Source: Marsupella aquatica
Lineage: Eukaryota; Plantae; Marchantiophyta
Direction: 5' to 3'
Assembly (NCBI GenBank): GCA_973895155.1
Contig: OZ316896.1
Span: forward strand, 16,852,754-16,916,753
Length of the DNA: 64,000 bases
The notes beneath the pieces were generated by a model, which saw only the letters and a program-made list of their open reading frames with translations, searched no databases and was not told where the DNA came from. Numbering within the stretch: position 1 is the first letter of the stretch; each line of letters begins with the position of its first letter. The translations under genes and the position numbers were made by a program. Shown in pieces: positions 8,652 through 36,154 of this stretch.

Positions 8652-8653
8652 GC

Positions 8654-8829: not shown

Positions 8830-8868
8830 CCCCCCCAGACCACGGCCAAAAGGAGGGCTGAAGAAAAG

Positions 8869-14800: not shown

Positions 14801-14868
14801 TGGAGTTGAGTTGCCTGTGCGTTGTGAGCCTCCTTCTGAGCTGGTTGCTTCTGTGGCTGCTTGGGCAA
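8869..14868 (-). CDS. pol: Pol part of the polyprotein: aspartic protease - C5 DNA methyltransferase - RT - RNase H - integrase - PHD finger
   Basis: Motifs: LDTGA (protease, ~13800); LELFGGISTG / AGWECQ / IIENT (MTase); RMCGDYRPLN, MPFGLKNAP, YIDD (RT; YIDD at 11230-11241); TDWS...EGECLA...TDH (RNase H); H-x4-H...C-x2-C, CDLAG, TDQG, ERMVQ (integrase); C4HC3 PHD. Gypsy domain order RT-RH-IN. Confidence 0.96.
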   Translation of the reverse strand: MPKQPQKQPAQKEAHNAQATQLQSLTHEVESLGAQLANIKGKSTASAGPSQPAGHVQPILGPGTADNSAPLPRSFYGLPFDAHMGECVLSSAPQPGLTAEFSDSFCPSYFAYQQASDASRIAPTRRIVQADGLAAGPLTRARGARAIMPQSFQPLTLAEERTLLARGEGAAATSIPPPGAADISQGVVFPELLEHFTSGMAQRILTTPLFSCHDLQLDARAVIRALEGSLHSSSAPVTPVLEVQSHVNTGPSSSPLHASTGLAIPVPISSGRDDSIAADCVTRATLDSGHAAPSFLAMLLSGKTMDTNSLHKVPHHLPKVVPSDRTLVSTTIAIVDNRNSAVKLEGHTPQVVMLDTGAQPVIFGIQFAKKMGLLTDHLQPSKWHIRTASGTVEDVLGESSTLLTLTFNGGTDQELHFPVRCLVTNATTYDVLIGQEALFPPGFTIDNWHEHAYYRVDWHTDGSHLGYIPLDLHGAHTPMAHHCVLKAVHTATYVNHPLEDWIEEDDDEVATAHAAARIAALSSNVDHQPEVVQRLQAAHGPLVAALHKFEDLGQHHGQPIAPILSAPVTWTPPSDGLTLLELFGGISTGLEALLQSGMVVKQYIYVDIDPGARQVAESRLLEFSERFPQQFPHSAWKSAFSFFPSDIQLVQHRHLTLLGSLDLIIAGWECQGFSAAGHGAGLHDSRSGLFTALVQILTWAQSLYPAVGYIIENTPSQFDQRPQVKEDFSVVQHYLGPPLLIDAVHCGSYAHRLHNFWTNLAPPSLLEMALHHTSRDTNLTVDQILDPDSSCQPVTRQEPAPWYPANTIGQPRAGWPTFVSFPGAHAFQGDGPGLVYQHSTGTWDEPSPEERERAMGFQPGTIGHIKITRLARNALLGRVMDLNALTWLLVTCILFQMYIPPALGAPALPLHSAATWHPDQVHLPLFNTHRFSPSVGGEEVPCNVADIISEFHGVDQTRATDTAGLGEASSPYQQHASSLDSGEAGTSGSSSTSTSGPIPSVANYTFIMGNHLSKRQKDQLLNLLLKHENVFAFSMKDLGKCKTMQFSIELADETPIFRRRHRLSKHEWQLVDERCQELYEAGLIQPSTSDFAAAIVMPAKKDSSGLWTEKRMCGDYRPLNLVTTQDRYPMPRPEELFDSIGDSDIFTLVDLRQGFNQILLLAKDRKKTAFHGSNQLWEWLVMPFGLKNAPIFFQRVMDQVLQGAEFLKCYIDDVLVHSKGFDQHLLDLEELFMRLKKVNLKIHPKKCEFAVKSVVYLGHRILPNGTMAHWAKVVSILEMPTPTDVHTLRSFIGLCNYYRIYIKDFSTIAHPLYALLKKNVTWTWSTDAEAAFATLKEKLSEYPVLRKPDFNKVFVLHTDWSALGIGAILGQHDEEGKEYVIAYASRSNNQAESHYSSYEGECLAVVWAVIHYRPYLYGTRFVLYTDHQPLKWLMTNDKLTGKLARWALILQEYNFEVIHRPGVTHQNADTMSRSPLIASDDPSDARQDFDQVSILPTFHASTYLALLPCYIVDQPVVDIWEDSDTLRFLQDGEYPTHVTAAQRDRIQQRSKHYLWKGDHLVRCLPDREVVVPPIHERVGLIRKVHSELGHFGVKRTYSLLVPRYHWRGMHGQVRDVIARCEQCDRVRTSFTSRQPTLHPLPIQGMFYRWSCDLAGELPLTSRGNLYIMIMIEHFSKWIELVALPDKTSRSTSQAFLQQVLSRFGACAECLTDQGSEFRGEFQELLDQALIDHRRTSRDHPQADGLAERMVQTCKKGLRKICLTKNKEDWDLALPYIAMGYRMSKHASLSNFSPYFLLFGRHPVPPSAIASHMLHVVDLDSAVTWSDVIFERAALFRRVMPMAMENLAIAQHRDTLRYAHTRGGTFQPKVRKFEVGDFVYLQRQANDTLDTSTSRTILRFKAIRPSGVLELQGADGRTIADNAKNCAPYHLPNLDPTIVTSTWIPPVDYPCKVCLQIDDADQMLLCDNCNGGYHLFCLRPELTQVPEGLWFCPSCAPRAI
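8887..9021 (-). other. PHD finger at the integrase C-terminus
   Basis: CKVC-x11-CDNC-x4-HLFC-x12-WFCPSC, a canonical C4HC3 pattern. Also intact in the outer copy (~24340-24476). Confidence 0.95.
12200..13150 (-). other. DNMT3-like cytosine-5 methyltransferase domain inside pol
   Basis: Motifs in canonical order: I LELFGGISTG, II YVDID, IV DLIIAGWECQ, VI ENT, VIII IDA...AHRLHNFWTNL, IX EERERAMGF, X RLARNALLGR. Confidence 0.92.
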
Positions 14869-16260
14869 TTTGTTAGCACCGGGGGCTTTGCCACTGGAAG
14901 GAGGAGCAACTGATGCAGTAGGAGCCCTCCTAGCTGGTGGGGGAGTGGAAACAGGAGCAGGATGAGTGGCCTGTTGTCGTAGCTGCTTCCGCTATGGGAA
15001 TTTGGCAAAACAAACTGCCTCCAAGTGGCCCACTTTCCCGCAAAAATCACAAGACAGGTCCTCAGCAACAATATCACATTCATTAGCCTTGTGATTAGGG
15101 TTACCACAGTAGTTGCAAGATGGCAGCATGAAAACAACATGTGCTGGCTTGGTCTTGGAACCATACTGTGGCACACGGGAAGGAGTGGCCAGTGTAGGGG
15201 CAGCAGCCTGGAACCTGGATCGCGGTGGACGCGCAATACTGGCCTCATAATGTGCATGGGCCAACTCAAGTTTCTCAGCAGTGTCATAGACATTGAGCAA
15301 GGTGTAGCTGTCTCCAAACTCTGAGAATATTTGCTGCAACACTTGCGAATGGAGAGCTGGTGTCCCCTCCAATGCGCGAAGATAGCGATGAGCAGCTTCC
15401 AGATCAGTGATGCTCTGGGTGTCCTCCTTCAGCTTGAGAAGCCGGCGATACATCATCTTCAATGTTTCATCGCGCTGCCTCACAAAGGTGGCCAACTGCA
15501 TGATTTTATCAGCACTCTTGATTGGGAATTCCAATTCAAGAACCTGGAAAAACTCAGCCACTGGATCAGCAAAGGCAGGGGAATCAATGGTGGGAGAAAT
15601 GCCTGATGTAGCCTGTGCCAAGATAGTGGGAGTAACTGGCGCAGTGGTGGGAACTGGAGTAGGAGGGGAAGTGGCAGGAGCAGCAGCATGGGCTGCAATG
15701 GCATTCTGTAAGGCCAATTGTGAGGCTGCCGTAATTGCACTGGCATAGGTAGGGTTAGGCAACTGTGTGACAGCAAGCAGCCGTTGAGAGTGCTGCTCAT
15801 ACACATCCAACGCCTCATGGTGCACATACCTGGCTGGCTGCTTAAATGCAAAAGCATTTGTGAAATTGCTGCCATACTTCAACTCCAATTCGCAAACGAC
15901 AGTGTAGAAAGTGGATTTGAACTCACGTAAAGAGATAGTGCCTGGCCGCCCGCTGAAGCGCTCAATGCGGCCAGATGAGTGGCTAGCATCCATGCTGTAT
16001 GTCGGTGAAGCTGGAACAACCACTGATGCAGAAGGGGTAAATGGCAATGAAGTGATAGCAGGCTTTGGAGTAGTGGTGAAGCGACCGCCAAATGTAGCAG
16101 AAGGATTGCGTGGTGTGGGTGCTGCTGCTGCTGTCTGCTGACGTCATCGAAATTGCCGAGGCTCCAATGAAATTGGCACCAATGGTCGTGGATCACTCCG
16201 TAAATGGTACCTGGATGTTGGTGGCGATGTGCTGCTACCTCCTGGCTCCTCTGCTGACAT
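14869..16260 (-). pseudogene. gag: Gag part of the same reading frame, with two premature stops
   Basis: ATG at 16260 (MSAEEPGG) is in frame with pol. Zinc knuckles CNYCGNPNHKANEC and CDFCGKVGHLEAVC. Stops at 16144-16146 (TGA; CGA in the outer copy) and 14992-14994 (TAG; GAG in the outer copy). Confidence 0.88.
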
Positions 16261-17557
16261 GCTGTGGTGTCCTTGCCGGATCGACGGTCTGATGTGTATG
16301 TCGGGCCTCAACCTTATGTAGATTACATGTGGCGGCAGCAAAGAAAGTGGGAAAATATGGGCCCTATGCAACGGTAGTCGAATATGTGAACTGGGCCCCT
16401 CTTAAGTGTATACACATTTGGGCCCCATTGTGGACCCGGAAACTGCAGCCGGACCGGTCGAGTGTGTATACACACTCGTAGCACACGGCCCTATGCAGCG
16501 CTAGTCGGATGGCTATGGAAAAGTCGAGGAGTCACTATGGCCGGCGAGGGAAAGAAACGGGAGGGCACGATGCCCTATGTACATACTGCGGAGCACAAAA
16601 GGCGTAAGGAGGAAAAGGCAAGACGCAGCGTGGCAAGGGCGAAGTAAAGAGATGGTGAAAAGAAAAGCATCGGGCCCCCATAGAGGGCTGCGAACTCCCC
16701 CCCTCCTCTCGTGCAATGTAATTTGGGCTCGTGCCCTGGCAGGAGCACTCCCGAGAAGGGAGTCGACTTAACTCCCCTCCCCCTTTAATGCTTCATAGGG
16801 CCTCGTGCCCTCTCCTCTCGCAGTCTCGCTTCAACTCCTCCCCCTCATTAATGCTGAATGGGGCCTTGTGCCTGGCAGAAGTGTGAGTCCCAAGAGGAGG
16901 GAGTCGAATGTACTCCCTCTCCTCCTTTTAATGCAGCATAGGGCCTCGTGCCCTCTCCCTGCGCTCCTGCCTTCGCTCCCCCTCCCCCTTCTTTAATGCT
17001 GCCTAGGGCCTCGTGCCCTCTCCTGGCGCTCCTTCCCCTTCCTCTGGCAGTCTGGCTGCTTAGAAATGGGCGAGGCAAGGGCACGATGCCCTATGCACAG
17101 CCTGCACACCAAAGCGGAAGGAGGTCGAGAGAAAGAGAAGAAAACGGGGCCCCCAAAGGCGAAAATGTAAAGAGGAGGCCGGGGTGGAAGCATGTCGAAA
17201 CGAGGGCACACGGCCCTATGCAGGCGTCTCGCTGCGGCCGAGGCAAAACTTGCCGGCAGCTGTGGCCGGGAATGCAAAAATGGCCCCAAAAACAGTCGAG
17301 GCAACAAGCGGCAGCAAGCGGCAGCAAGCGGCAGTAACAGTAAGAAGGAGCAAATGGGGTCACGGATGCAACCAGAAAATGAACTCTGGACCTCCTCGGG
17401 AGCATTGATATGTGTATACACTTAAGTATACACATAACAACATAAACCCATAACTTTCAACTCGTCGCTCCGATGTTCGTCGAAGAAATTGCAATGGCTT
17501 CACCAGAAATTATCAAAATCGTCACGAGCAAGCTTCTTTCCCTCACTGCCAACTCGG

Positions 17558-17572
17558 CAGTTCTTCTTGAAT
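17558..17572 (-). promoter_or_regulatory. Putative self-priming primer-binding site, inner element
   Basis: Perfect 15-bp inverted repeat of 17714-17728, which lies inside A1. Confidence 0.75.
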
Positions 17573-17927
17573 AAAGGGCGTAAGAGAAACAATTGTACTG
17601 AAATCGAATCGAAAACCGGCAGGATGCCAAGATCGGTCGGGAGCATCTAACGAATCACTGTGTGAATCCCGTGTACGGAATCGACGAGCACTGTCTGAGC
17701 TCTGTCAACAGTGATTCAAGAAGAACTGAAGAACGGCAAAGAAAAACATGCCCTAAGTAGGACCGGGTCCAGGCGTCCACTAACAAACCTCTTTTGCTTC
17801 AAGAACAGCCCAGACTCGCTACAAGAACATGACACTAACTCAAGTAGTACACTAGCCCTAACCATACCTAGCGGACATGCGAGGGACATGCCGATGTGCA
17901 CAAGCGGCACTGTCCCTCGGCATGACA
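17571..17927 (-). repeat. Inner element terminal repeat A1
   Basis: Near-identical to 8324-8651 and homologous to the outer A repeats. Confidence 0.92.
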
Positions 17928-17931
17928 GCCA

Positions 17932-20900
17932 CCCAGAGCATCACTGACCTGGAAGCTACTCATCGCTATCTTCGCGCATTGGAGGGCACACCAGCTCTCC
18001 ATTCGCAAGTGTTGCAGCAAGTATTCTCAGAGTTTGGAGACAGCTACACCTTGCTCAATGTCTATGACACTGCTGAGAAACTTGAATTGGCCCATGCCCA
18101 TTATGAGGCCAGTGTTGCGCGTCCACCGCGATCCAGGTACCAGGCTGCTGCCCCTACATTGGCCACCCCTTCCCGTGTGCCACAGTATGGTTCCAAGACC
18201 AAGCCAGCCCATGCTGCTCTCATGCTGCCATCTTGCAACTACTGTGGTAACCCCACTCACAAGGCTAATGAATGTGATATTGTTGCTGAGGACCTGTCTT
18301 GTGATTTTTGCGGGAAAGTGGGCCACTTGGAGGCAGTTTGTTTTGCCAAATTCCCAGAGAGAAAGCAGCTACGACAGTAGGCCACTCATCCTGCTCCTGT
18401 TTCCATTCCCCCACCAGCTAGGAGGGCTCCTACTGCATCGGTTGCTCCTCCTTCTAGTGGCAAAGCATCCAGTGCTAACAAATTGCCCAAGCAGCAACTG
18501 AAGCAACCAGCTCAGAAGGAGGCTCACAACGCACAGGCAACTCAACTCCAGTCTCTGACTCATAAGGTTGAGTCCTTACGTGCCCAACTTGCCAACATCA
18601 AAGGCAAGTCCACTGCCTCTGCTGGTCCTTCTCAACCGGCTGGTCATGTGCAACCCATCCCTGGCCCAGGCACCACTGACAGTTCAGCACCCCTACCCCG
18701 CTCTTTCTATGGCTTGCCATTTGATGCTCATATGGGTGAGTGTGTGCTGTCCTCTGCTACACAGCCTGGCCTACAGCAGAATTTTCAGATTCATTCTGTC
18801 CTTCCTATTTTGCTTACCAGCAGGCCAGTGCTGCCTCCCGTATTGCTCCCACACGCCGCATTGTACAGGCTGATGGCCTTGCTGCTGGTCCTATGACTAG
18901 AGCCAGGGGAGCTCGGGCTGTCATGCCCCAATCTTTTCAGCCACTCACACTTGCTGAAGAACGCACCTTGTTGGCAAGGGGGGAGGGAGCTGCAGCTACA
19001 TCCATTCCACCACCAGGTGCTGCTGACATTTCACAGGGAGTTGTTTTTCCTGAGCTGCTTGAGCATTTCACCTCCGGTATGGCACAAAGGATTCTTACCA
19101 CTCCACTTTTCAGTTGCCATGATTTACAGCTGGATGCTGGAGCTGTCATCAGAGCGCTAGAGGGCTCACTGCATTCTTCATCAGCCCTTGTGACACCGGT
19201 TTTGGAGGTCCAATCTCATGTAAATACTGGACCTTCTTCTTCTCCATTGCATGCTTCCACTGGTTTGGCTATCCCAGTACCGATTTCCAGTGGTAGAGAT
19301 GATAGTATTGCTGCAGATTGTGTGACCAGAGCTACACTTGATTCTGGTCATGCTGCTCCATCTTTCCTGGCTATGCTATTGAGTGGGAAGACCGTGGACA
19401 CTAACTCCCTTCACAAGGTACCTCATCATTTGCCAAAAGTGGTGCCTAGTGACAGGACTTTAGTTTCCACCACCATTGCCATTGTTGACAACAGGAATTC
19501 AGCAGTCAAGTTGGAGGGTCACACTCCTCAGGTGGTCATGCTAGACACAGGTGCTCAACCAGTGATATTGGGCATTCAGTTTTCCAAGAAGATGGGACTG
19601 TTGACTGATCATTTACAGCAATCCAGGTGGCACATTCGGACTGCTAGTGGCACTGTGGAGGATGTGCTGGGTGAGAGTTCTACTTTACTCACTCTCACTT
19701 TTAATGGAGGTACAGATCAGGAATTGCATTTCCCAGTCAGATGTTTGGTTACCAATGCCACTACGTATGATGTGCTCATTGGCCAGGAGGCTTTGTTCCC
19801 ACCAGGTTTTACCATTGACAATTGGCATGAGCATGCATACTACAGAGTTGATTGGCATACGGATGGCTCACACTTGGGCTACATTCCACTTGATTTGCAT
19901 GGTGCCCATACACCTATGGCTCACCACTGTGTGTTGAAAGCAGTGCACACAGCTACCTATGTCAACCACCCATTGTAGGATTGGATTGAGGAGGATGATG
20001 ATGAGGTGGCTACTGCACATGCTGCTGGACGTATAGTAGCACTTTCCAGCAACGTGGATCATCAACCAGAGGTGGTACAACGGCTCCAAGCAGCCCATGG
20101 ACCTTTGGTGGCTGCATTGCGCAAATTTGAGGATCTAGGGCAGCACAATGGCCAACCAATAGCCCCAATCTTGAGCGTACCAGTTACATGGACTCCTCCT
20201 TCAGATGGCCTTACATTGCTTGAGCTTTTTGGTGGCATTTCTACAGGCCTGGAAGCTCTCCTAAAGTCTGGCATGGTGGTGAAGCAGTACATCTATGTGG
20301 ATATTGATCCAGGTGCAAGGCAAGTGGCTGAATCCCGTCTGCTGGAATTTTCAGAGCGATTTCCCCAGCAGTTTCCACATAGTGCATGGAAGTCTGCATT
20401 TTCTTTCTTCCCTCCAGATATCCAGCTTGTCCAGCACCGGCACTTAACCCTTCTTGGCTCCCTTGATTTGATCATAGCTGGTTGGGAATGCCAAGGGTTT
20501 TCAGCTGCTGGTCACGGTGCTGGACTGCATGATTCTCGTTCTGGCCTTTTCACAGCATTGGTTCAGATTCTCACCTGGGCTCAATCCCTTTATCCTGCTG
20601 TTGGTTATATCATTGAGAATACTCCATCTCAGTTTGACCAGCGTCCACAGGTCAAAGAGGATTTCAGTGTGGTCCAGCACTACTTGGGACCACCCCTTCT
20701 CATTGATGCAGTGCACTATGGTTCTTATGCACATCGTCTTCGTAACTTTTGGACTAACCTTGCACCACCTTCCTTGCTGGAGATGGCTCTTCACCACACA
20801 TCCATGCCAGGGACACTAACCTTACAGTGGACCAGATTTTGGATCCTGACAGTTCTTGCCAACCAGTTACACGGCAAGAGCCAGCACCTTGGTATCCAAC

Positions 20901-23900
20901 CAATACCATTGGACAACCCCGTGCTGCTTGGCCTACATTTGTGTCCTTTCCAGGTGCACATGCTTTTCAGGGTGATGGTCCTGGTCTGGTTTATCGACAT
21001 TCTACCGGTACATGGGATGAACCTAGTCCTGAGGAGAGAGAACGGGCTATGGGCTTCCAACCCGGTACTACAGGTCACACCAAAATCACCAGGCTGGCCA
21101 GGAATGCTTTACTTGGCAGGGTAATGGATCTCAATGCTCTCACTTGGCTTCTGGTCACTTGCATCCTTTTTCAGATGTACATTCCTCCAGCATTAGGAGC
21201 TCCAGCCTTACCACTCCACAGTGCTGCTGCATGGCATCCAGACCAGGTGCACTTACCTCTGTCCAACACTCACCACTTCAGTCCAAGTGTTGGGGGGGGA
21301 GGAGGTCCCTTGTAATGCGGCTGACATTATTTATGAGTTTCATGGTGTGGACCACTTCGGATCAGCAGGTACAACAGGCCTTGGAGAGGCCTCATCACCT
21401 TATCAGCAGCATGCTAGCAGCTTGGACAGTGGAGAGGCTGGCACTTCTGGCTCTTCAAGTACGAGTACATCAGGTCCTATTCCTAGTGTTGCCAACTACA
21501 CATTTATCATGGGCAACCACCTGAGTAAAAGACAGAAGGACCAGCTGCTGAATTTGCTCCTCAAGCATGAGAATGTGTTTGCTTTCTCTATGAAGGACTT
21601 GGGTAAGTGCAAGACTATGCAGTTCTCCATTGAGTTGGCTGATGAAACACCTATCTTCAGGCGGAGACACCGTTTGAGTAAGCATGAGTGGCAGCTGGTG
21701 GATGAGAGGTGCCAAGAGCTCTATGAAGCTGGTCTTATTCAGCCATCTACATCAGATTTTGCGGCAGCTACAGTGATGCCAGCAAAGAAGGATTCCAGTG
21801 GATTGTGGACAGAGAAGCGCATGTGTGGGGACTACAGGCCATTGAACCTGGTCACACCCCAGGACAGGTACCCCATGCCATGGCCAGAGGAGCTATTTGA
21901 CAGCATTGGAGACTCAGACATCTTCACTCTTGTGGATCTAAGGCAAGCCTTTAACCAGATTTTGCTACTTGCAAAGGACCGCAAGAAAACAGCTTTCCAT
22001 GGCAGTAACCAACTATGGGAGTGGTTGGTGATGCCATTTGGCTTGAAGAATGCGCCCATATTCTTTCAAAGAGTCATGGACCAGGTTCTTCAAGGTGCTG
22101 AGTTTCTGAAATGCTACATTGATGATGTGTTGGTCCACAGCAAAGGATTTGACCAGCATCTACTTGACCTTGAGGAGCTATTCATGAGGCTTAAGAAGGT
22201 GAACCTAAAGATACACCCCAAGAAGTGTGAATTTGCTGTCAGATCAGTAGTATACCTTGGGCACCGCATTCTTCCAAATGGAACCATGGCTCACTGGGCC
22301 AAGGTGGTATCCATCTTGGAAATGCCCACTAGCCTCGAGATGTGAGGGGTAATTCTCCAGCCAAATCACATGACCAGCGATAAAACATGCCCTGAATAGG
22401 GAGTGGATGAAGTGTGGGTTGCCGAGATGTGAAAGAAGTCCTCACCCTATCACACTGTTCACACCGGGCAATAACATCTCGAACCTGGCCATGCATGCCT
22501 CTCCAATGATAATGAGGGACCAAGAGGCTGTAAGTCCTCTTAATGCCAAAATGACCAAGCTCAGAATGTACCTTATGGATAAGGCCAACCCTCTCATGAA
22601 TGGTTGGAACCATCACTTCCCTGTCTGGCAAGCAGCGCACGAGATGATCTCCCTTCCACAAGTAGCGCTTGGACCTTCGCTGAATTCAGTCTCTCTGGGC
22701 AGCAGTAACATGTGTGGGTAACTCCCCATGCTGCAGAAATCTCAGAGTGTCGTTGTCCTCCCATATGTCCACCACAGGTTGGTCAACAACATAGCATGGC
22801 AGCAAAGCAAGATAGGTAGATGCATGAAATGTAGGCAGGATGGAAACCTGGTCAAAATCCTGCCGTGCATCTGAGGAATCATTAGAGGTAATCAAAGGGC
22901 TACGGGACATAGTGTCAGCATTCTGATGTGTCACACCAGGCCTATGAATTACCTCAAAGTCATACTCCTGGAGTATGAGCGCCCAACGAGCAAGCTTGCC
23001 AGTAAGCTTGTCATTGTTCATCAACCACTTCAAGGGCTGGTGGTCGGTGTAGAGGACAAACCTGGTCCCATAGAGGTAGGGTCTGTAATGTATGACAACC
23101 CACACAACAGCAAGGCATTCACCCTCATACGAAGAATAATGACTCTCTGCCTGATTGTTGCTCCTGGATGCATAGGCAATGACGTACTCTTTACCTTCCT
23201 CATCATGCTGGCCCAGAATGGCACCAATCCCAAGGGCACTCCAATCTGTGTGTAGCACAAAGACCTTGCTGAAATCAGGTCTTCTCAGCACCGGGTATTC
23301 TGAGAGCTTCTCCTTCAAAGTGGCAAATGCTGCCTCAGCATCTGTACTCCATGTCCAAGTCACATTCTTTTTCAACAAAGCATACAATGGATGTGCAATG
23401 GTGCTGAAATCTTTGATGTAGATCCGGTAGTAATTGCACAACCCAATAAAACTCCTCAAAGTGTGAACATCGGTAGGAGTATAATCTCTACATCATGATC
23501 ATGATAGAGCATTTCTCCAAGTGGATAGAACTTGTGGCATTGCCGGATAAGACCTCCCGTAGCACCAGGCAGGCATTCCTGCAACAAGTTCTCAGCCGCT
23601 TTGGAGCTTGTGCAGAATGTCTCATTGACCAGGGCTCAGAGTTTAGAGGAGAGTTCCAGGAGCTGCTTGATCAGGCCCTCATTGATCATCGCCGGACATC
23701 ACGAGATCACCCACAGGCAGATGGCTTGGCAGAGCGCATGGTTCAGACATGCAAGAAGGGTCTCCGGAAGATCTGCCTCACCAAAAACAAGGAGGATTGG
23801 GACCTGGCCTTACCCTACATTGCCATGGGGTATAGGATGTCCAGACATGCATCACTGTCTAACTTTTCTCCCTACTTCTTGTTGTTTGGTCGTCACCCAG

Positions 23901-24493
23901 TTCCACCTTCTGCTATTGCTGCTCACATGCTTCAGGTGGTGGACTTGGATTCAGCTGTGACTTGGTCTGATGTGATCTCTGAGAGGGCTGCCCTATTCAA
24001 GAGGGTTATGCCCATGGCCATGGAGAATTTGGCCATTGCACAGCACAGGGACACACTGTGTTATGCACACACACGAGGGGGCACTTTTCAGCCCAAGGTC
24101 AGGAAGTTTGATGTGGGAGATTTTGTGTACTTGCAGCGGCAAGCTAACGACAACCTGGACACCTCTACCAGTCATACTATTCTCAGGGTTAAAGCTATTC
24201 GACCGTCTGGAGTGCTAGAGTTACAAGGGGCAGATGGGCGCACAATTGCTGACAATGCTAAGAATTGTGCCCCTTGTCATCTGCCTAACCTAGATCCCAC
24301 CATTGTGACTTCTACTTGGATTCCACCTGTGGACTACCCTTGCAAGGTGTGTTTGCGAATTGATGATGCTGACCAGATGCTGCTGTGTGACAATTGCAAT
24401 GGAGGGTACCATCTTTTCTGCCTTCGGCCTGAACTTACCCAGGTGCCAGAAGGGTTATGGTTTTGCCCTTCTTGTGCTCCACGTGCTACCTGA
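17932..24493 (+). pseudogene. Outer element gag-pol, 3' part; pseudogenised
   Basis: Collinear with the inner ORF. Stops at 18378 and 19976, plus 22686 within the inversion. Frameshifts near 18770, 20803 and 21295. Internal inversion at ~22333-23480. DNMT domain at ~20200-21170. Confidence 0.92.
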
Positions 24494-24525
24494 ATTTTCT
24501 TCAGCCCTCCTTTTGGCTGTGGTCT

Positions 24526-24532
24526 GGGGGGG
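24526..24532 (+). promoter_or_regulatory. Polypurine-tract-like G7 (outer); inner equivalent at 8830-8836 (-)
   Basis: G7 run ~33 bp after the pol stop, immediately abutting B1 in both copies. Confidence 0.7.
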
Positions 24533-24706
24533 ATACAGAGGTTTACACCTCCACTACGTACATACCACTTCATTTGCTTTCTTGGCACTTGTGAATGTGA
24601 TTGGACTTTTTCTATGCATGTTGGTTGCTAGCAACTTGCACATATGCCTTGCCGGTGACTTGTATGTTTTCGATACACTATGGCTACGATACTATATGTC
24701 ACGACA
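24533..24706 (+). repeat. Outer element repeat B1 (~174 bp)
   Basis: Starts ATACAGAGG right after a G7 tract and ends TGTCACGACA. Repeated at 25067-25224. Confidence 0.92.
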
Positions 24707-24708
24707 GC

Positions 24709-25066
24709 TGTCATGCCGAGGGACAGTGCCTCTTATGCACATCGGCATGTCCCTCGCCTGCCCGCTAGGTATGTAGTTAGGGCTAGTGTACTACCTGAGT
24801 TAGCGACATGTTCTTGTAGCAAGTCTGGGCCGTTCTTGAAGCAAATGTGCTTGTTAGTGTGACGCCAGGACTTTGCTTGCTTAGGGCATGTCTTTCTTTG
24901 TGGGTTTTCAGTTCTTCTTGAATCGCTGTCGACAGAGCTCAGACAGTGCTCGTCGGTTCCATACACGGGATTCACACAGTGATTCGTTAGATGCTCCCGG
25001 CCGATCTTGGCATCCCGCCGGTTTTCGATTCGATTTTAGTACACTTGTTTCTCTTACGCCTTTTAT
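24709..25066 (+). repeat. Outer element repeat A2
   Basis: Copy of 5681-6038, separated from B1 by the dinucleotide GC. Confidence 0.92.
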
Positions 25067-25224
25067 ATACAGAGGTTTACACCTCCACTACGTACATACC
25101 ACTTCATTTGCTTTTTCTTGGCACTTGTGAATGTGATTGGACTTTTCTATGCATGTTGGTTGCTAGTAGCTTGCACATATGCCTTGCCGGTGACTTGTAT
25201 GTTTTCGATACATATGTCACGACA
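25067..25224 (+). repeat. Outer element terminal repeat B2
   Basis: Copy of B1 with a ~17-bp deletion near the CGATAC repeats. Ends ...CACGACA followed by the TSD. Confidence 0.9.
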
Positions 25225-27220
25225 TATATCCAATCTATTGCCTGACAAAGTTTGCGACTTCTGGAAGATCATTTGTTCCAATACCAATGAACACAAAGAT
25301 GGTCAAATATTCTAAATCACAAGTTCACTTAACACTTGGAAATTTCATCTGGGTCAACTGAAAAATGGTGTTGCTAAGCAATGGCATGACATTTTGACGT
25401 CTTTCATGTTCAAGGTTGTCAGATTGTCAAGCTACCAAGGGGACAATTTGGTAATGTAATAGAAACAACTTTTAAGTACATTGTCATTAAAGATGTTTGA
25501 ATTTACAATACTGCCACTTTTGTTTTTGTATTTACAAAAATGCCACAATTTTCGTATATAGTTACCTTGGTAAACTTGTCATCCGTATGTCAAACCGTGA
25601 CATTTTTATAAATACAGAAAAAATAATGACAATATTGTAAATTAGAACATTTTTAGTGGCAAAGTGATTAAAAGCTGGTAATATAAATTGGGGTGCAAAT
25701 GGTATGGAGACCATTTACAGGTCAAATTTGAGTCAAAAGTGTAAACAATGTTCTGAAAGTCCATTCAAGTTTTATCCTTTGGGCTTAATAGACAACCTGG
25801 AGGTCCATCCCAGTTCAGTTTTAGTTCTTACCACATTATTTACTGTCTTGAACTACAAAATACATCATAATAACTTTTCAGTCTACAAATAAATACTCGT
25901 CTGATTTTGAGACCCTCAATATATACTTTAACTTAAACAAAATAATATTCCTGGAGTTTTGAGCCATTCCAATTTTTTTTAATTGGACTAAATTCTTCTA
26001 GGATTCTGAGCCCTACCAGCAGGCTGGTGGGCTAGACTTTCATACCACTCCTTTATTTTCCTCCCAAATACACCTTGTAGTTATTGATAGTAATTCAGCA
26101 TGGCACTCATGGAGTCTTAGGTTCAATGTTCAATGAGGGGTGACTTTTTAGCATCTTCTTCAAGGAGACACAACCCTTATGTGGGCAGATTAATTAAATC
26201 TACAAATATAATAAGGGATCCCATTTTTTTAGTCCTTTGTCCCAATACAAAAAACTTCTGGGTAGGAAAGATCCACAACCATTGGATTTGATTAGTTGTT
26301 TCCCCTGACCATTGATGGAAAAAATGTCCACCCGTGGCACATATGTGCTTCCCACTGCCCCATAAATGCCCTGGCTCGAATCCCTATGGGCAGGCCCTCC
26401 TTGCACAGTGCAACACACTGGCATAGGGCTCGTGATTCATAATTCTCCATGAAAAATGGTCAATCATCCCCTTCAAAGCTAAGGGGGTGTAAAAAGTAAA
26501 ATTAGTTCGTGGACCCCCACCTGTTTTTATTCGATTGAGATTGAAAAGTGGATAGTTCGCTAAGTTCGAGGCTATAGAATCTCAATACATGGAGGCATTT
26601 CAACTGTAGCTATTTAATGTATAGTATAAGTTAGTTTCCTTGCTCGTGAAGGAAAAAATGGTGAATGCCCTAATCATAGGCGCTTTGGTGCAAGTCTTGG
26701 CCAAACTACTTGACACTGAACATGAATTTTGAGGTGCCAGTTTAGGGACAGCATTGCAATTGCCAAGTGGCCGTCGTCAGCAAGTTTGGCTATAAATGAC
26801 TTTGAAAGTGTATGTTGCTGACTTCAATTCCTGAAAGCACATGATATTACAGTCCCCAAGGGCGAAGAGTCTATTATTGAGCACTGATTCCATGCTGAGG
26901 ACAAATCCGTTCCTAACTCGACTCCACATGTTTACAGTTTTCGCCCGAGAATGACAATTAATTACTCAGTGTGTTTGACAAGGAGGTGCTCATAAGAAAG
27001 TTGACCTTGTTCGATCGATCTGCTTTTGTCTTTTTCTTTTGCTCAGGTCGCTGCCTTACAGCTCTTCTCTGCCCCGATCGTGTATGGCCCACTCGAACAA
27101 AAAAATCTATCTTGAAAAACATGGTGGGAAATCTCAGGGCGCAGTAAAGTTAAGAGCCACCAACACGCTGCCGAGAGGGAACTCCAACTTACACAAAAAG
27201 CTTCACAAAGGTGAATCTAC

Positions 27221-30200
27221 TGTCACGTCGTAGGCTTCGGCCTTAACTCAGACTTCAGCTTAGACGGGCACATCCCTCGTAAATCTGAGGGTTTGGGCAG
27301 GAAGGGAAGCACGTAATGCACCTTATTCTCGTAAACTAGCGCTAAGTGCGCATACTGCTAAATACGGACACCTCCTAGGTATGGTTTGTGTTCCGCCGCC
27401 GGAACGTACCTTAGTCGATAGCAGCATCGACCCCGGCTTAAGGGCTTCTAAGCCTTCGTGCTGTCCGCCTTCGATCCGGATTCGATGATACAGGTCCTCA
27501 ACCCGTGCTTGCAACCACTTACCCGCAGGCTGCACCCTGTGCACGTCTCGGGTAGTGCGTTCGGCCTGGCGCTGCCACCCATATACGAGAAACCCACACA
27601 CATATGCGCACACATGCATACAATCTCGATTTACACGAAGGAAAAATGATGGGAAAGGATTTTACTACAAAGGGAACATATGCGTACACTTAGTTGACAC
27701 GACAGCCCTGGAATGCACAGGTTCAAGGCCAAGGGTGCACACTACAACGGAGCCCGGCTCCGCACTCGCCCGACGAGCTTAGTCCTACCCCCTCCCCTTG
27801 GTACTCTGTCATTCCCAGAGGTCGGGACTCCCCGCATGTCCCGCGGATGTCCGACTCTGAAACTAAAAACCCCCCCCCTTGCCTCTACCGAGGGGTGCAC
27901 TAAATACTAAGAGCCGAGGAACGGGGCGTCCTCCTGCCGAAGATCCGCTGACCAAGGTCCTAACTAAGCTGACAGTCAGGCCGGAAAACGGCTGTGTCTT
28001 ATTAGAAGATCCTAATCTATGCAGGCTGGACAGCAGGGCAGCGCTGCTGTACCTAAGGCAGGTGCCTATCCCAAGAGCCTAACTAAGCCAATCCTAATCC
28101 TAATCTATTCCTACTCCGCCGCTAATGCCTGGCACGCTTGCCAGAGCCGCCCGAATGGGAACGGCCATCCCGCTGCCTTCGAAGCCTGTCATTGTCCGCT
28201 TTGAGGAGCTGGACCTGGTCCAGCAGAGATTCGTTCTCTCGCCTCGCCGCGTCCGTCTCCTCTGCTGCCTCCTGACATGCCTCCTCCAGCTGCTGGGCGT
28301 CGCTCGTCAGTTTACTCGCCAGCTGGTCCTGCTTCTCGGCCTCGGTTTGGAGCCGCGCCATCTCGGCCTGCAGCGTGGCTATCTCCGTCGCGTCCCGCTG
28401 GGCTCGCTCCTCGGCCTCCTCCAGGTCTTTCTGCCAGGTGACAGCTTGTTTCTTCAAACTGTCAATCTGGTTCCGGAGTCGTGTAATCTCGGCCTCGTTC
28501 CCAGCTTTGGCCTGTTCGGCTAGGGCGGTAAGAGCGTACGCCTTTGCTAACAACTCATCGGCGGCTGCAACCTTGGGTCGTAGTTGCAGAAGCTCAGCCT
28601 CTTGAGCCGCCACTTCGTTCTTTAGGTACACGGACTCCACCCGGTACCGCTCTATCCTCTGAAGGGCCTCCGACTGGGCCCGACCTGCCTTTACGGCGGC
28701 AACCAACTCCTGATTGAAGAAACAGGCTACCTTCCGGGCCATGAACTCCCCGGTATCCCGGGCAATTTGATGAGAGAAATCTCCCAGAAGCCCGTTCAGA
28801 AACGTACCCTGTACGAAGAGTTCCGGGTGGTCCAAGTTGTGCCTGTCCGGATTTGGGCACGGGCAGACATCAACACGTGCAGGGGCCGGGGCAGTGACGT
28901 CCAGCCCTGGGGACATAACGTTGGAAGGGGCTGGAGTGTCCTCCTGCAGCGATGTCCGGTTCTCCGAAATTGCCACCGGCGGGTCCTTGGGAGACCCGGG
29001 TTCGGGTAAGACCTCTGCCGTACCAACTTCTGTACTTAGCCCGGCTAGTTGGGTCGCATCAACGGTTGCGATGACCGACCCCTCCGACGCCTCCTCGGTT
29101 ACGATTACAGCTATTTGTGGAGGTGGGGTGGGTGAAGCTGGCGTGTCCACTGGACTTTGGGCCTCGGGTTGGGGCCGTCTCTCCAATGCCGGAAAAACCC
29201 ACCTAGCTGGGACCAGCTTTGTAACGTTGATGCGGGGAAGGGTTCGTCGATCAAACCGGGCGTACCACTCAAGAATGATTTCAATGTGGCTAGCGAAATA
29301 CGCTTTCCCGCCAATGTACAGCGTCTTCCTTCGCCGCTCCATCTCTTCATGGAATTTCTTAGCGAAGTATGACGCCCATTTCCTAGGTCGATAGTTCTCG
29401 ACCTGGATGACCTGGGCGGCGGAGATCTCCCCCCGGGGTTCCATCATGTGGAGAGCATACCTCTGGAACTCCAGCCACTCAGCTATCTCGGGCATGAGGC
29501 AGGTCCTCATCACGAACCCGTTGTCCACTGATCCCTCTGAGGGAAAACTTGAAGATTGGTACTTGGCCCCCTTGCCCCCGGGAGCCCGTGATTCGACTCG
29601 ATGGTCACCTTCGGGTAACCCGAAGATCATCTTGAGCCGTTCTTCTGTGAGGGACATATTCCTTCCCCGCAGCCGAGTCTGTTGACGTACGTCATCATAA
29701 TTCTTGACGAATTCTGTCATGTCCTCCCCGTAGTACCTGCAAGTGTTCCAGGGGAGAGAGGCGAGGTGCTCAAATCCCTGAGTCTTCAGGTACACCGCAT
29801 GCTTGGGATGGAGGATGTTGCTGTGAACGTTTTCCCCCATGCGATGCATCGTTACCTTGGCTACGGCTACCGTGGCCAACGGTAACCCGGATGCACTGGC
29901 GGATTCCTTCCTCTTCTTTCCCCGTGACTGACTCGGGGAAGGTGATACTTCCCCATCCTCCCGATCGGGCCTGGGGAGTGCCACTGCGGTTGGTAACGGG
30001 CCCGGGGCGGCCACGGTCACCATGTTGTCTGCTGGGGCCGCTCCTGGGGTCAGAGCAGGGGGTGGGGACGATATAGTGTCGGCCCCCCGAGCGCTTGTTC
30101 CTCTGGGCCGCCTGGTCAAGGGTGGGGTAGCCTCGTCGTCATCGCTAAGATCCACAGCGTTGATGACGGAGCGTACCTGTGCTGGCTGGGTGATAGGTGG

Positions 30201-31230
30201 TGGGGTTTGGTTAGGCTGCGGCTGAGGCTGAAGCTGAAGCTGAGGTTGCATGAGCACGGGTACGGGTACGGGTACGGGTCCGGCTGAGTTGGTCATGTTG
30301 GTTGATGGCCGAGTTCCCATGAAGCTCTGTAGGTGCTGGTAGAAGTTCTCCGAAGCGAGTGCGGACGCCCTTGTCGAACGGTTGGTACTGGACTCGCCGT
30401 TAATGACAGCCCGAACCTGGGCAGGGATGTGGTCGAAGTGATGTCGCTGCAGGTCGATTGTACCCAGGATATTGAAGACCTCGTCCGGAAGCCGAAGCAA
30501 TGCTTCCCAGAACCCGATATATTTGTCTCCGTTGAAGAAGTACCCAGATACCTCAGCTGGTCGGTAAAGCTCGCTCTGAGATGGGTAGTCAAAGTTAAGG
30601 ACGTAGTGGTGTCGTCCTGCTAGGCGGATGGCTCTCTCGTATTCGCGTTCGATCTCGTATCGGTGCGGGTTGGCGTGTTTCAATGAATCGGCCAAGTGCC
30701 TTCCGGTAGATAGGAACTGCGTCCAGAATCGAATGGCCGAGCTGGAGAGGATCGTGTGCGACATTCAGAGGAGATAGTAGTGGCGACCTAGAGAGAACGA
30801 GAGAGCTGGGGTCGAAGCTGGCACGCGGACTGATGGACTGGTGCACTACAAAGGGTTGGCTCCCCTTTTATACTTTGAGGGCTTGTCGATCCCCGACGTC
30901 TCCTTGACGCCCATAGGTTGAACCGCTCACGCTTGTGGTGTACCGGCCACTCCGCCGGTCTGAGTCAGCGTGCGTCAGTGGCCGCTTCCTTAAGTTCGTT
31001 ATACGGACCCGAGGGAGGGGCCCCTCCACGCTCGTAACCCGGGTGTGCGAATAGCGATCCTCCGCCAGCCCGAACCTGAAGTCCCCCTTATTGCCTAATG
31101 ATGTCCTACCCCTAATGATTACCTAAATACTGTCGTTATACTAATAATAGCGGCCTAAGACCCACCTAATGCGCGTGCCGAGCGCAGTTAGACTGAATCA
31201 CTCATTAACCGCCGTACCGGCGGCGTCACA
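27221..31230 (-). mobile_element. 4.0-kb TG...CA LTR-like unit (giant solo LTR or internally deleted LTR element) carrying an ORF
   Basis: Ends TGTCACG...CGTCACA with a 5-bp TSD TCTAC at 27216-27220 and 31231-31235. No paired LTRs and no gag/pol seen. Confidence 0.8.
28122..30764 (-). CDS. 880-aa intronless retroelement accessory protein: Pro-rich linkers, plant-transposon-protein-like central domain, C-terminal coiled coil
   Basis: Uninterrupted ATG ORF. EFVKNYD...LRGRNMSLTEERLKMIFGLPEG resembles the EFYAN..VRG..I...LG.P signature of Athila/Tat extra ORFs. Heptad-rich C-terminus. TATAAAA on the minus strand at 30866-30872. Confidence 0.75.
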   Translation of the reverse strand: MSHTILSSSAIRFWTQFLSTGRHLADSLKHANPHRYEIEREYERAIRLAGRHHYVLNFDYPSQSELYRPAEVSGYFFNGDKYIGFWEALLRLPDEVFNILGTIDLQRHHFDHIPAQVRAVINGESSTNRSTRASALASENFYQHLQSFMGTRPSTNMTNSAGPVPVPVPVLMQPQLQLQPQPQPNQTPPPITQPAQVRSVINAVDLSDDDEATPPLTRRPRGTSARGADTISSPPPALTPGAAPADNMVTVAAPGPLPTAVALPRPDREDGEVSPSPSQSRGKKRKESASASGLPLATVAVAKVTMHRMGENVHSNILHPKHAVYLKTQGFEHLASLPWNTCRYYGEDMTEFVKNYDDVRQQTRLRGRNMSLTEERLKMIFGLPEGDHRVESRAPGGKGAKYQSSSFPSEGSVDNGFVMRTCLMPEIAEWLEFQRYALHMMEPRGEISAAQVIQVENYRPRKWASYFAKKFHEEMERRRKTLYIGGKAYFASHIEIILEWYARFDRRTLPRINVTKLVPARWVFPALERRPQPEAQSPVDTPASPTPPPQIAVIVTEEASEGSVIATVDATQLAGLSTEVGTAEVLPEPGSPKDPPVAISENRTSLQEDTPAPSNVMSPGLDVTAPAPARVDVCPCPNPDRHNLDHPELFVQGTFLNGLLGDFSHQIARDTGEFMARKVACFFNQELVAAVKAGRAQSEALQRIERYRVESVYLKNEVAAQEAELLQLRPKVAAADELLAKAYALTALAEQAKAGNEAEITRLRNQIDSLKKQAVTWQKDLEEAEERAQRDATEIATLQAEMARLQTEAEKQDQLASKLTSDAQQLEEACQEAAEETDAARRENESLLDQVQLLKADNDRLRRQRDGRSHSGGSGKRARH

Positions 31231-34129
31231 TCTACTGCTAAAATGCGTCACCAGGCCATGCCCTGCGTAAGCAATTACCTCCCCTGTCGTGCATGGCTAC
31301 TGTCCTCTCCTGTCGTGTATGGCTAGATTAGAGTTCTGTCCTGCATTCTTTGCTAGTCGCGTAGCAACTGGGGCAGCAATCAATCAATCATGATCCAGCC
31401 TGGGTAGCAACTAGCAAGCATTGTCGTATGCAGACGGAATTTACTCTTTCAATTTTCTGTTGTTCTCTGGATCATCGGGGTGTTGTGTTAGTCTCTCTCG
31501 CCCTTTTGTATCTCTTCCTTTTGTATCTCTTCCTTTTGTATCGCTTTCACTTCGCCATGGCCTCTTTTGGTTCAAATCGCAGTCGTTCTTTTCCTGATTC
31601 GATCGTTTGTTTGTTAACAATCTTTGATGGGGCAGCTTCGATCAAAATCAACAATCAAAATCAACAACGAGAACGCGTACAATCAAAATCAACAACGAGA
31701 GCGCGTACAAAGGTTGTGGCGCAGAGGTGCGCTCCTTGTAGTGTGGATTGGGGGCGGGATGGATTGTAGTGGACTACTACGTTGAGCTTCAGTGATCTGC
31801 TAGAGTAGTTGAGGTCGATCAGTCCTTATCGATCTTGTCAATGTCCTTATCGATTCTCTTTGCTTCTCCTTCTTTCTGCTCGATCTATTTGTTTCTGATT
31901 AAGATGTGCTGCGCCTCTTTTCTGTCCTCGATCAGTTCTCATTTTTGCTTTCTTCATTCGGCTTCTGATCTATTTTGATTTTGTTTCTCCAACATTCCTC
32001 TTTACTTTGCACTTCAAGAGGCGAAACTCCTTTCGAGATTTCCTCTTTTCATTACTTTCATCAAAAGCCTTCCTCCCTTTCAAAATGTTGATGTGCTTCT
32101 TTTGTTCTGACGGTTTTATTTCGGCAGTTACACAGGAATACGGTTACTGTTTACGTTGAACACTATTTACTTTTATAAAAAAACATTTATAAATTTAAGT
32201 AAAGAGAATATGGGTGAATGTTTTTAATCTCGCCCTTTGTATCAATAGATTTGGATGAACTACTTTTAATTATTTTTACATTATGTTTTGACGGCACGAC
32301 GTCCATAAAATTACACGAAAAGCGACGTAAACAAGATGGAGAGGAGTTTATTCGTTGCGCAAACATGACCATTCTTGTTTGTTGCGGTTGTTGCTGACGT
32401 GGCATGCTGTGGTGCCAGGAATTTTGGAAGGAACCTCTAGTGGGCTCCGTAATAAAATACCAAATACAAGGCTTGCACCCCAATAAAGAAATCAAAGAAT
32501 CCCTAGAGTTACAAGAAAATTTAATAAGTCAAAACTTGAAAGTAGTTCCCTACTATCAATCTCAAACATCCTTATCAAAGCTAGCAAATTTCATGTGTTA
32601 GACAAGTGCCTTCCCCAATTGTAGGGAACGTATAAGGATTACAAAGTAGCCTGTCCTAGGAAGGCACAACTACTTTAGACACAATTTTGGGAACGCTCAC
32701 ATGTGCGATGCCCCATAAAAGCTAATCATGCCTAATTTTATGAAAATGATGCTCATATGTAGGTAGCTATGGTACCTTTCTAGCTACATACTATGATCAA
32801 GAACGAGCTCATTCCTCTTCTTGCACAAACACAAATAAAATATGATGATAGAAATTAAAGAAGGAGATTCCACTCATTGTTTAGCCATGTTTTTGGTTTG
32901 CATTGCAAGGCTCCAATCAATCAACACATACTCAAACTGTTGCACATGGAGTTATGCGTCTATACACAAAGTTGATGCACCTAGGAGTGGATGGACCCAG
33001 CAATAATTTTGACACCAAAAAATGTGAGCATTCAGTTCTTCAAATGAAAGGTCATATCTACTATAAAAATTACATGTCAAGAGGGTCCATATGGGGTTGT
33101 ATAGTCCATTTGAATGCCACTTGTCAAGCATTGTGCTCTACGAGAGCTATCCTAGGCACCTGCCTCAAAGCACAGAGAAGGGAAAAAGAAATGAAAACAG
33201 GTCTCCTTTTCTATATGGCGTCTGTTGGCCCCCAATTTTTTCAGAGTAAACTACAGTATACCATACTGCTATAGGTCGTTATTAGTGGATAAGATGAAGC
33301 GCCACAGTTGGTTGGATTAGAATAGCCCAAAAGGAATACATACATTTAATAGTGGAGTGGCCAGCACGCACCAAATTGGGCACTGGCGCACTGCGTGGTG
33401 TTTTGTTGCAGAGCAGGGCACTGGCATCGTCATCCTCTTCTTTGCTCCTCACAGTACCACTACCTCGACTATTTCCTAAGTGCACATTTGTGGGAATAAG
33501 CCTGGGCCTTGCACTTACATGTGGTTTGCACTCTGTTTTCAGACTTTGCATTGTGTGTTGAAACTCACATTTTCAGACTTGCACTTGCTTTTAAGTAACA
33601 TGATGATTTTGCTTGCTGCTAGAGTGCCTATGCCTTGAGTAATTTGTCGTCCTTTGTCACATTAGACAAGTTGCACACATTAGACAGTAGGATGGGTTGG
33701 ATTATATATCCAAATCATAAACCCCTGTGAAGTATCTCATAACTGCAACATTAACTCTACATAAAAATAGTGTGCACTTATTGATAAGAGTTCTTCATAC
33801 GATTATGTGCACATAAACCTTACAGAGGGTTTTACACGTACATGTCTGTTGTTTGGTGGAGCCATCTATGCTCTTATAACCAGGCCCGTGACCGAAGCTA
33901 CTGTATGTGGTCACAAGGGCTAAACCAATATCTAGAGTTAAACCGCTACTCACTATGACAAACTGGATCTACCATATTTCACAATTAAAAAGTAATATTT
34001 TCCTTGTAGCGTGGAGTAAACTGGCAGGGTAGAGGAGAGGAGAGAGTGGAATATGGAAAATTGGAAGTATTGGACACTTCCCCCTTGTATATAACCAGCA
34101 GTTGTTTAATGTAGTTTTGACAAAATGTT

Positions 34130-35037
34130 CCCACAATACATTAGCCAGGTCTGAACTTGTGTAATGCACTTAGCAAGAGCTGAAGAGCCAGATGCCTTGC
34201 AATTACGGAGATTTTGCACTTAGGAGTGTGCACTGAGGAAGAGCTGAGTTCCTACAATACATGAACCAGGTTTGCACTTAGTATTGCACTTAGGAAGAGC
34301 TGAAGAGCACATGCCTTGCATTTAGGCAGGATTTGCACTCCAGGAGTGTGCACTGAGGAAGAGCTGACTGTATGAGTCCCCTACAATACATGAACCAGGT
34401 TTGCACTTAGTATTGCACTTAGGAAGAGCTGAAGAGCACATGCCTTGCATTTAGGCAGGATTTGCACTCCAGGAGTGTGCACTGAGGAAGAGCTGACTGT
34501 ATGAGTCCCCTACAATACATGAACCAGGTTTGCACTTAGTATTGCACTTAGGAAGAGCTGAAGAGCACATGCCTTGCATTTAGGCAGGATTTGCACTCCA
34601 GGAGTGTGCACTGAGGAAGAGCTGACTGTATGAGTCCCCTACAATACATGAACCAGATGCCTTCTCAATTTGGCAGTGTCTTGCAATGAGGAAGAACTGA
34701 CTGTACATGCACTCATAAAATACATGAGCCATGTTTGGCACTTACGTATGGCACTTAGGATGAGCTGAAGCACTAGATGCCTTGCAATTAGGCAGATTTT
34801 GCACTTATGCATTGCGTCAAGTAACAGTTGAAAGAGCTAGATGCCTTGCAATTATGCAGGGTCTGCACTTATGGAGCGTGCACTGAGGAAGAGCTGACTG
34901 TACGAGTCCCTACAATACATGAGCCAAGTGTGCACTTATGTACTGCCCTAAGTAAGAGTTGAAGAACTGGATGCCTTTGCAATTAGGCAGGGTATGCACT
35001 TATGGAGTGTGCACTGAGGAAGAGCTGACTGTACGAG
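34130..35037. repeat. Tandem array with a 129-bp unit
   Basis: TACAATACATGAACCAG recurs at 34253, 34382, 34511 and 34640. Three near-identical units with diverged flanking units. Confidence 0.92.
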
Positions 35038-36154
35038 TGTTAAATTTCAAGGACTGAACTTTCTGCCACTCTGGTGCTTGCTGCATCTTTCCTCGCCCTC
35101 CTCCTCCATTTCCTTGTTTCCCTTGTGGGCTCTCTCATCTCCTCTCCTCTCCTCCATTTGAGTTGGGCGATTCCATTATTAGTCACTCACCACCAAATCA
35201 AAGATTTCATTGGGGAAGCAAGCAAGCAAGCAAGCAAGCAACGTAAGCCTCAGGCTTGCTCTCCCAGTTGGGCATTGACACGTCTCGGACCCGTATTTGA
35301 GACCTCTCATCCATCCAAACAGTCGGCCAAATCATCGATCATCAGAGACGTTAATAATAAAAACACTACATCTACTCTCCCTCGCTCGCTCGCTCGTTCT
35401 CGTGCTCTCCCTCTGACGAGACTGAGGAGTGTGGCCAGGCCCTTCATTCCTCACCCTGCTCAGCTCCTGATGAGCTCCTCTTCTTCTTCCCACTCTCGAC
35501 CCAGTTCTGTAGTGAGACACTTCGGCTCGGCCTGATTTCTCCCCAAAACTTTTCAGGGTAGGAGCTGCTACTCTGGTTTTGCCTCTGTTGGGTGTGGGTT
35601 CTGTTTTCATCTCCTTTGCATGTAGCTGTTATTGCTGTATCCGTCACATGTCTTGGAGTGGGTGATGAATTGCTCTGTTTGGTGGATTGAGCTTCATGCA
35701 AGGTCTTGCCTTTGTGACCAGTTGGTCACCAGGTTACTGCGGCCGGTCGTGGGTATCATCGTCCTACTTCCGCCTTCTTTGTTTCTATGCTTGCATAACC
35801 GTAACGGACCGTGGAATCCAGCTTCGTAGGATTGTCCGTCCAGTGTCGGAGGTAGTGTTCCTCTTGAATTCCATTTTGTCGGAGGAGGCGATGGGGACTT
35901 GAGAAGAGGTGGTGAAAGGACCATTGGGTTACGTCATGGAGCTGCCTGAATTGCTTGCTTACTATTGGTCATTGGTGTAGTTCACCTTCTCCCCTGGACT
36001 TTTCATTCGCTGTGGTATAAGAACGGTTGGAAACTGCACTAAAGAGAGACATGATTGGGGGAACAGCTGATTAACGGATTGTTAGTAATGAATGGTGCAG
36101 ACTCGGGGGCCGCTGGCGTCGAGGCGGGCTGGGGCTGGGGAAGAGAAGTAGGAG

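Follow-up and report, generated by a model that had tools for sequence, protein, structure and literature searches.

A Ty3/Gypsy retrotransposon with circularly permuted LTRs in Marsupella aquatica and a candidate internal integrase junction

A 64,000-nucleotide stretch of Marsupella aquatica DNA (contig OZ316896.1, hereafter the window) harbors two nested copies of a Ty3/Gypsy retrotransposon with circularly permuted LTRs, each arranged as A-internal-B-GC-A-B. On the basis of the repeat structure and of related loci, we consider it quite likely that the integrase of this element acts at the internal junction at which B and A meet across a two-base spacer, an assessment that covers jointly the explanation preferred below and a version with a free circle.

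Permuted repeats in the two window copies

The outer copy occupies 5681-25224 (+ strand) between TATA target-site duplications (TSDs; 5677-5680 and 25225-25228), and the inner copy, nested within it, runs on the − strand from 17927 to 8148 between TSDs of TGGC (17928-17931 on the left, 8144-8147 on the right). Both copies show the same layout with TG...CA ends and 4-bp TSDs. In the outer copy (+ strand throughout), A1 (5681-6038) starts with TGTCATG and forms the left integration end. A G7 polypurine tract (24526-24532) directly adjoins B1 (24533-24706), which starts with ATACAG, the predicted left end of the cDNA, and finishes with CACGACA; A2 (24709-25066) finishes with TTTAT, the predicted right end of the cDNA, and B2 (25067-25224), flush with A2, provides the right integration end. 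The corresponding features of the inner copy (− strand throughout) are A1 as the left integration end (17571-17927), a G7 tract (8830-8836) again directly adjoining B1 (8654-8829), A2 (8324-8651), which stops 30 bp before the end of A at the A|B joint, and B2 (8148-8323), with its final CACGACA as the right integration end. A1 and A2 differ by substitutions at 3 of 358 sites in the outer copy and at 4 of 327 sites in the inner copy, and judged by this divergence both copies are young.

The original prediction placed the meeting point of B1 and A2 at CACGACA-GC-TGTCATG in both copies. This sequence is present at 24700-24715 (+ strand, spacer at 24707-24708), and its exact reverse complement lies at the inner junction (8645-8660, − strand). 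The core GACAGCTGTC occurs twice in the window, once per junction, with 0.05 occurrences expected by chance; a palindrome of such length is unremarkable by itself, as the window contains 79 perfect 10-bp palindromes. Contigs of four public runs from two studies diverge into unrelated flanks at 24706 and 24709; no indel at the outer junction is listed in them, and the sole spacer change listed is G>A at 24707. From the varied flanks and the lack of junction indels in these contigs, it follows that the ends and the spacer length are constant over many copies of the family. The inner TSD, TGGC, itself terminates in GC and adjoins a 68-bp deletion of the outer copy, so the inner copy, taken alone, may be read as having retained the spacer at the end adjoining its TSD.

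Several further observations concern the window. The inner copy is inserted (8144-8147/17928-17940) at a site where, compared with the inner sequence, 68 bp are missing from the outer copy, with a 4-base microhomology, and this deletion may have arisen while the inner insertion was repaired. A 1.15-kb inversion within outer pol (22333-23480), away from the att junction, carries two additional bases at each break. An AT-rich, imperfect inverted repeat of 212 bp (25466-25677), 240 bp from the outer right end, is perhaps a small non-autonomous element. Elsewhere, a tandem array has a 129-bp unit made of two 64-bp halves (34127-35038), and two uninterrupted frames encode 880 aa of no clear family (28122-30764, −) and 1036 aa with ARM/HEAT repeats (49495-52605, +).

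Self-priming, coding content and classification

The claim that the polypurine tract and primer-binding site together define a reverse-transcribed repeat B-GC-A holds, with a self-priming site after A and the G7 tract before B. The 15 nt that directly follow A1 are complementary to a stretch located 200 nt into A. The predicted self-priming site is perfect in the inner copy (17558-17572, −, 15/15 complementary to 17714-17728) and has one mismatch in the outer copy (6037-6051, +), where the complementary stretch, the predicted RNA 5' end and self-primer, is at 5881-5895 (+). Equivalent pairing after A, in wholly other letters, was found in two further families, that is, in three unrelated sequence families. 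The perfect pairing runs span 10-16 nt and were matched by none of 1000 shuffles in four cases and, for the outer copy, by 4 of 1000; the post-A pairing was the best duplex in 13 of the 18 A copies scanned. Because the self-priming site follows A and the G tract lies at B1, ordinary LTR rules predict a cDNA of the form [B-GC-A]-internal-[B-GC-A], with the TG/CA integration ends buried in each repeat.

Elements of the Tf1/sushi group and Tcn1 have two ordinary LTRs. Self-priming from a complement of the own LTR, with no tRNA, is described for Tf1/sushi and plant Tcn1 in passages of PMC6317226, and the primer site of the window element is likewise complementary to its own LTR. However, those elements carry a chromodomain, whereas here a PHD finger is found and the repeats are permuted.

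The inner pol frame (8869-14991, −; 2040 aa) encodes a protease, a C5 DNA methyltransferase, reverse transcriptase (RT), RNase H, an integrase with HHCC and D-D(34)-E motifs and a PHD finger. A gag-like frame (14992-16143, −) shares its reading frame and is separated from it by one stop, which the outer copy and many relatives lack. The order protease-RT-RNase H-integrase, the integrase of HHCC and DDE retroviral type and the TG...CA ends with a TSD in the 4-6 bp range all agree with Ty3/Gypsy. That group should also show two complete terminal LTRs with the primer site and the polypurine tract directly inside them, an arrangement not found here; both signals are present but bound B-GC-A, and the integrated ends fall inside that repeat. 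No chromodomain was present 3' of the integrase, where the PHD finger lies, and the two inner-copy frames contained no tyrosine recombinase Pfam family and a DDE integrase. In the methyltransferase, the catalytic loop reads W-E-C at pol residue 708 (about 12870, −), in place of the customary P-C motif; E-C is also found in proteins P0001 and P0009, and P-C in Klebsormidium nitens P0088.

The best solved-structure matches of the integrase were Ty3 and foamy virus. Against insertion-sequence profiles it scored 26.9 bits for IS3 (cut-off 160) and 67.1 bits for IS481 (cut-off 224), with no match to IS30. The integrase tree placed it in a clade (support 100/99) including proteins of K. nitens, Chlamydomonas, Haematococcus, Tetrabaena and Pleodorina, and the relatives point to the green lineage. 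The D(34)E spacing was present in 30 of 30 clade rows with a readable motif, and D(35)E in all rows of an outgroup consisting of five rows, one with a long branch.

The permuted layout is already in print, in one figure legend. The legend of Fig. 4c in de Mendoza et al. 2018 describes KnitGypsy-Dnmt3 from K. nitens as having a DIRS-type repeat structure and Gypsy domains (PMC5890265), and the window element similarly combines a C5 methyltransferase in Pol with DIRS-like repeats; unlike the present description, the passages covered of that paper mention neither a junction with its spacer nor a TSD, and neither a priming site nor a mechanism. K. nitens P0088, which has the same domain set and may correspond to KnitGypsy-Dnmt3, falls in the integrase clade of the window element (100/99). 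No mechanism for the layout was found in full-text searches of the literature, although the thesis cited as Craig 2021, Repbase notes or subscription journals may treat it; the passages covered of 10.64898/2026.05.21.726589, PMC2774666 and PMC8557442 were uninformative about the repeats.

In the Chlamydomonas repeat library (PMC9940879 supplement), 9 of 11 palindrome occurrences among the matches listed lie shortly after a G tract. Two elements in it, Gypsy-18_cRei and Gypsy-14a_cRei, show A-internal-B-GC-A-B with the same 10-bp palindrome and a G tract before B, and a C. incerta record ends in B-GC-A-B. By eye, Gypsy-18_cRei carries, immediately past A, a sequence complementary to part of A, and Gypsy-14a_cRei a PHD-like motif past the integrase. 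These elements differ from the window copies in being classed as LTR/Gypsy only and in a B of about 50 bp, and the Gypsy-18_cRei record retains GC after the last CA. The passages covered of the PMC9940879 main text do not discuss these elements.

Junctions, ends and joints among relatives

Relatives were taken as the best 80 of at least 456 obtained in a scan. Nineteen of these 80 had no match to A or B, mostly owing to contig ends, and the other 61 formed 51 groups: 22 distinct metagenome insertions of the long form A-internal-B-GC-A-B, 22 of the short form A-internal-B and 7 set aside, all counted in short-read assemblies in which repeats may be collapsed. Set aside were L011, L022 and L032, which end within a repeat, L068, which misses its 3' end, L069, a duplicate of L067, the deleted L079/L080, and L028. 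Short forms have TSDs. The 4-bp stagger originally proposed is reflected in the TSDs of 15 copies among the matches listed, of which 11 were perfect 4-bp repeats, two had one transition and two were unmatched; L027, with an eroded left end, was not counted. In nearly all listed loci that have B, a G tract adjoins it.

The spacer was 2 bp long in 31 of 32 distinct junctions among the matches listed, consistent with the claim of a fixed two-base spacer dropped at the integration ends. Its letters were GC in 13 junctions, AC in 9, GT in 7, AT in 2 and AGC in 1, the last being the 3-bp spacer of L066; the two-base changes in this set were all transitions, with no transversion. A control CTG in the body of B1 decays equally fast (G>A in 11 of 20, C>T in 5 of 20). 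Since all changes are transitions and the control decays at the same pace, decay after insertion suffices to account for the spacer variants, although with 18 of the 31 two-base spacers differing from GC some variants may be inherited.

The palindrome also extends to distant members. GACAGCTGTC was exact in five of nine distant loci at 40-54% protein identity; of the four without it, three end too early and L088, a member of the clade, is a true miss, with no junction within 2.4 kb past the integrase core. In L090 the junction lies 3.3 kb downstream and lacks the G6 tract, and L083, from a family at 54% identity, has the layout of the window copies. The contigs L082-L090 are green-lineage retrotransposon sequences within prokaryote genome bins and are most likely contaminants. 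One of them, L082 (1-9285), was assembled as a circle with a single B-GC-A repeat and represents either a repeat collapse or a single-repeat circle. The spacer is absent at integrated ends and present in the internal junction. Because the junction is conserved across the green lineage only in its uncut state, a sequence kept in that state is most simply explained as an integrase substrate, as far as comparison of sequences can indicate.

The joint between A2 and B2 is variable. Among the matches listed, the A|B joint of 24 long copies was flush in 10, lacked two bases in 7, had one extra base in 2, carried larger deletions in 4 and was unclear in 1, the reference end being taken from the family where a copy has no A1 of its own. 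Three sister pairs in the B tree carry different joints. The distance between B repeats was 0.083 within an element vs 0.125-0.130 between elements, private changes numbered 135 in B1 against 137 in B2, and 28 transversion variants were common to B1 and B2 of the same element, with no separate B1 and B2 lineages. In these respects B1 and B2 act as fresh copies of one template. B1/B2 divergence was lower than or about equal to A1/A2 divergence in the seven older loci where all four repeats are present, and slightly above it in the two window copies. Against the fresh-copy reading, three indels separate B1 from B2 in the outer copy, where A1 and A2 differ by none, and the resolution of the B tree is weak, B1 and B2 being unique nearest neighbors in only 10 of 40 cases. 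The A|B joint looks end-joined, which supports the original reading on this point, and the varied joints together with the unseparated B1 and B2 fit a joint made anew by the joining of two cDNA ends.

Individual loci gave further observations. At L028 (3693-4642), A2 stops exactly at the predicted right end of the cDNA, with no B, and is followed by a segment from inside the element in inverted orientation; this looks like a free cDNA end joined to a wrong partner, in one short-read contig. The short form L006 has four additional bases starting with AC between its last CA and the apparent TSD (3985-4000, 13060-13070), possibly a junction remnant. In several copies B1 and B2 differ in how many 15-17 bp subterminal units precede the final CA; such B repeats occur in L002, L016, L050, L061, L066 and the window (25200-25224), and L050 terminates at one of the inner units, with a proper TSD. 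Viral contigs yielded one weak relative and 31 pattern matches taken as chance.

Proposed route of integration and its alternatives

We propose that the RNA would start about 200 nt into A1 and prime itself right after A, and that plus-strand synthesis from the G tract would then produce [B-GC-A]-internal-[B-GC-A]. Integrase would then cleave the palindrome GACA-GC-TGTC after CA on both strands, the GC overhangs would be lost, and the two freed CA ends would be inserted at a 4-bp staggered cut in the target. Host end-joining would likely connect the actual termini of the cDNA to one another, either before insertion, as a circle, or afterwards, as repair of a chromosome break. Use of the left-repeat junction would yield the long, copy-competent form. 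Three origins are conceivable for the short form A-internal-B: an intermediate with a single repeat, use of both junctions, or an insertion through the right junction that was then repaired by homology. Such directionality might have either of two sources: the left junction may become double-stranded early and therefore be bound early, or insertion of linear cDNA may leave a break that end-joining closes when the left junction was used and that homology repair converts to A-internal-B when the right one was used. This hypothesis would account for lasting products from only one of two identical junctions. We hold the directional version to be slightly more likely than not, and a circle may precede cutting.

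Among known enzymes, the closer analogue is retroviral. Foamy-virus integrase cleaves a palindromic two-LTR junction after CA on both strands, leaving 2-nt 5' overhangs (PMC1180852), and work on HIV-1 integrase at the two-LTR junction points likewise (PMC4372172). The original statement that retroviral integrases act on linear ends was hence too strong. In both viruses the junction arises only by ligation of cDNA ends, whereas here it is permanently encoded within the repeat, and the predicted cDNA ends are not the integration ends.

The IS3/IS30 analogy originally drawn was not supported as stated, as the enzyme is a Ty3/foamy-type integrase far under the IS3 cut-off and the spacer is encoded by the element. 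IS3 and IS30 are DNA transposons, and their junction spacer comes from flanking donor DNA. The window element would share with them a DDE enzyme working on two abutted ends a few bases apart; in the window family, however, the spacer is, irrespective of the flanking sequence, either GC or a transition of it, and the parallel is a loose one only.

The original prediction also invoked a finished two-repeat circle, cut at the internal junction before yielding A-internal-B-GC-A-B, A-internal-B and A-B-GC-A-internal-B. Its core, use of the internal junction, is quite likely, and the predicted product A-internal-B is common (22 insertions, with TSDs, vs 22 long forms among the best 80 of at least 456 relatives). 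Because a finished circle has two identical junctions, A-B-GC-A-internal-B would be expected to be equally common. In the same best 80, it was absent from all 17 left ends, and the copies in which both ends could be seen comprised 9 long and 7 short forms and none of that type; its absence from nine two-junction copies has a one-sided p of 0.002 if the copies are independent. Circularization may thus precede cutting, but the simple circle is only partly supported. A finished circle cut at either junction could still be reconciled with these counts if the missing product were later lost by A-A recombination to A-internal-B; the equality of long and short forms is what full collapse of the alternative would yield, and the variable A|B joint is similar to a circle junction. 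However, long forms retain their close B repeats uncollapsed, and late collapse is not indicated because decay is not greater in the short forms than in the long forms (Mann-Whitney p 0.22-1.0 over four proxies). We regard this alternative as unlikely.

PAT and Ngaro elements have split direct repeats, A1-internal-B1-A2-B2, and a proposed circular intermediate (PMC7192593), and the repeat layout here is the same, as it is in the legend of PMC5890265. A comparable route, in which the RNA would span A1 to B2, with the B/A junction inside the element as a template for rebuilding and closing the ends and a DDE integrase in place of the tyrosine recombinase, appears improbable, more so than a finished circle. 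It would have the A|B joint and B2 inherited, which is consistent with a few B1-with-B1 groupings (one starred B-tree node unites two B1 copies) and with one site at which all 8 discordant pairs have the change in B1, but sister elements differ in the joint, B1 and B2 form no separate lineages, and a whole-repeat test for their separate inheritance was flat (69 of 500 label swaps reached the observed value). The conserved self-priming site and G tract lie exactly at the A|B boundaries, also against that route, and the window element differs from PAT and Ngaro in its DDE integrase, 4-bp TSD, dropped spacer and absence of a tyrosine recombinase. An ordinary A-B LTR element rearranged after insertion, or an assembly artefact, has a very small probability: A2-B2 in isolation resembles a normal TG...CA LTR, but the layout recurs in both window copies, in 22 metagenome insertions (among the best 80 of at least 456 relatives), in L083 and in curated Chlamydomonas elements, a recurrence that refutes this reading, and contigs of public runs bridge the junction.

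Returning to integration through the internal junction, its origin likely lay in an ancestral circle junction CA-GC-TG captured into the repeat, with the priming signals shifted. It seems somewhat probable that an LTR clade spread across green plants gave up end-processing and integrates only through this captured junction, with the D(34)E integrase as its marker.

Retroviral-type integrases are held to act on linear cDNA ends, and whether junctions serve as true integration precursors is an old dispute. To our knowledge, the cutting of junctions has been described for foamy-virus and HIV-1 integrase alone, and there as a side activity. In the present case an entire clade seems to be organized around an internal integrase junction, and the permuted layout accounts for such elements escaping LTR finders and LTR-based dating. 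With a predicted substrate of 16 bp and members in Chlamydomonas, the question is directly testable. If the proposal is true, these elements would be a natural retroelement with an obligatory junction substrate, whose cDNA ends are closed by host end-joining.
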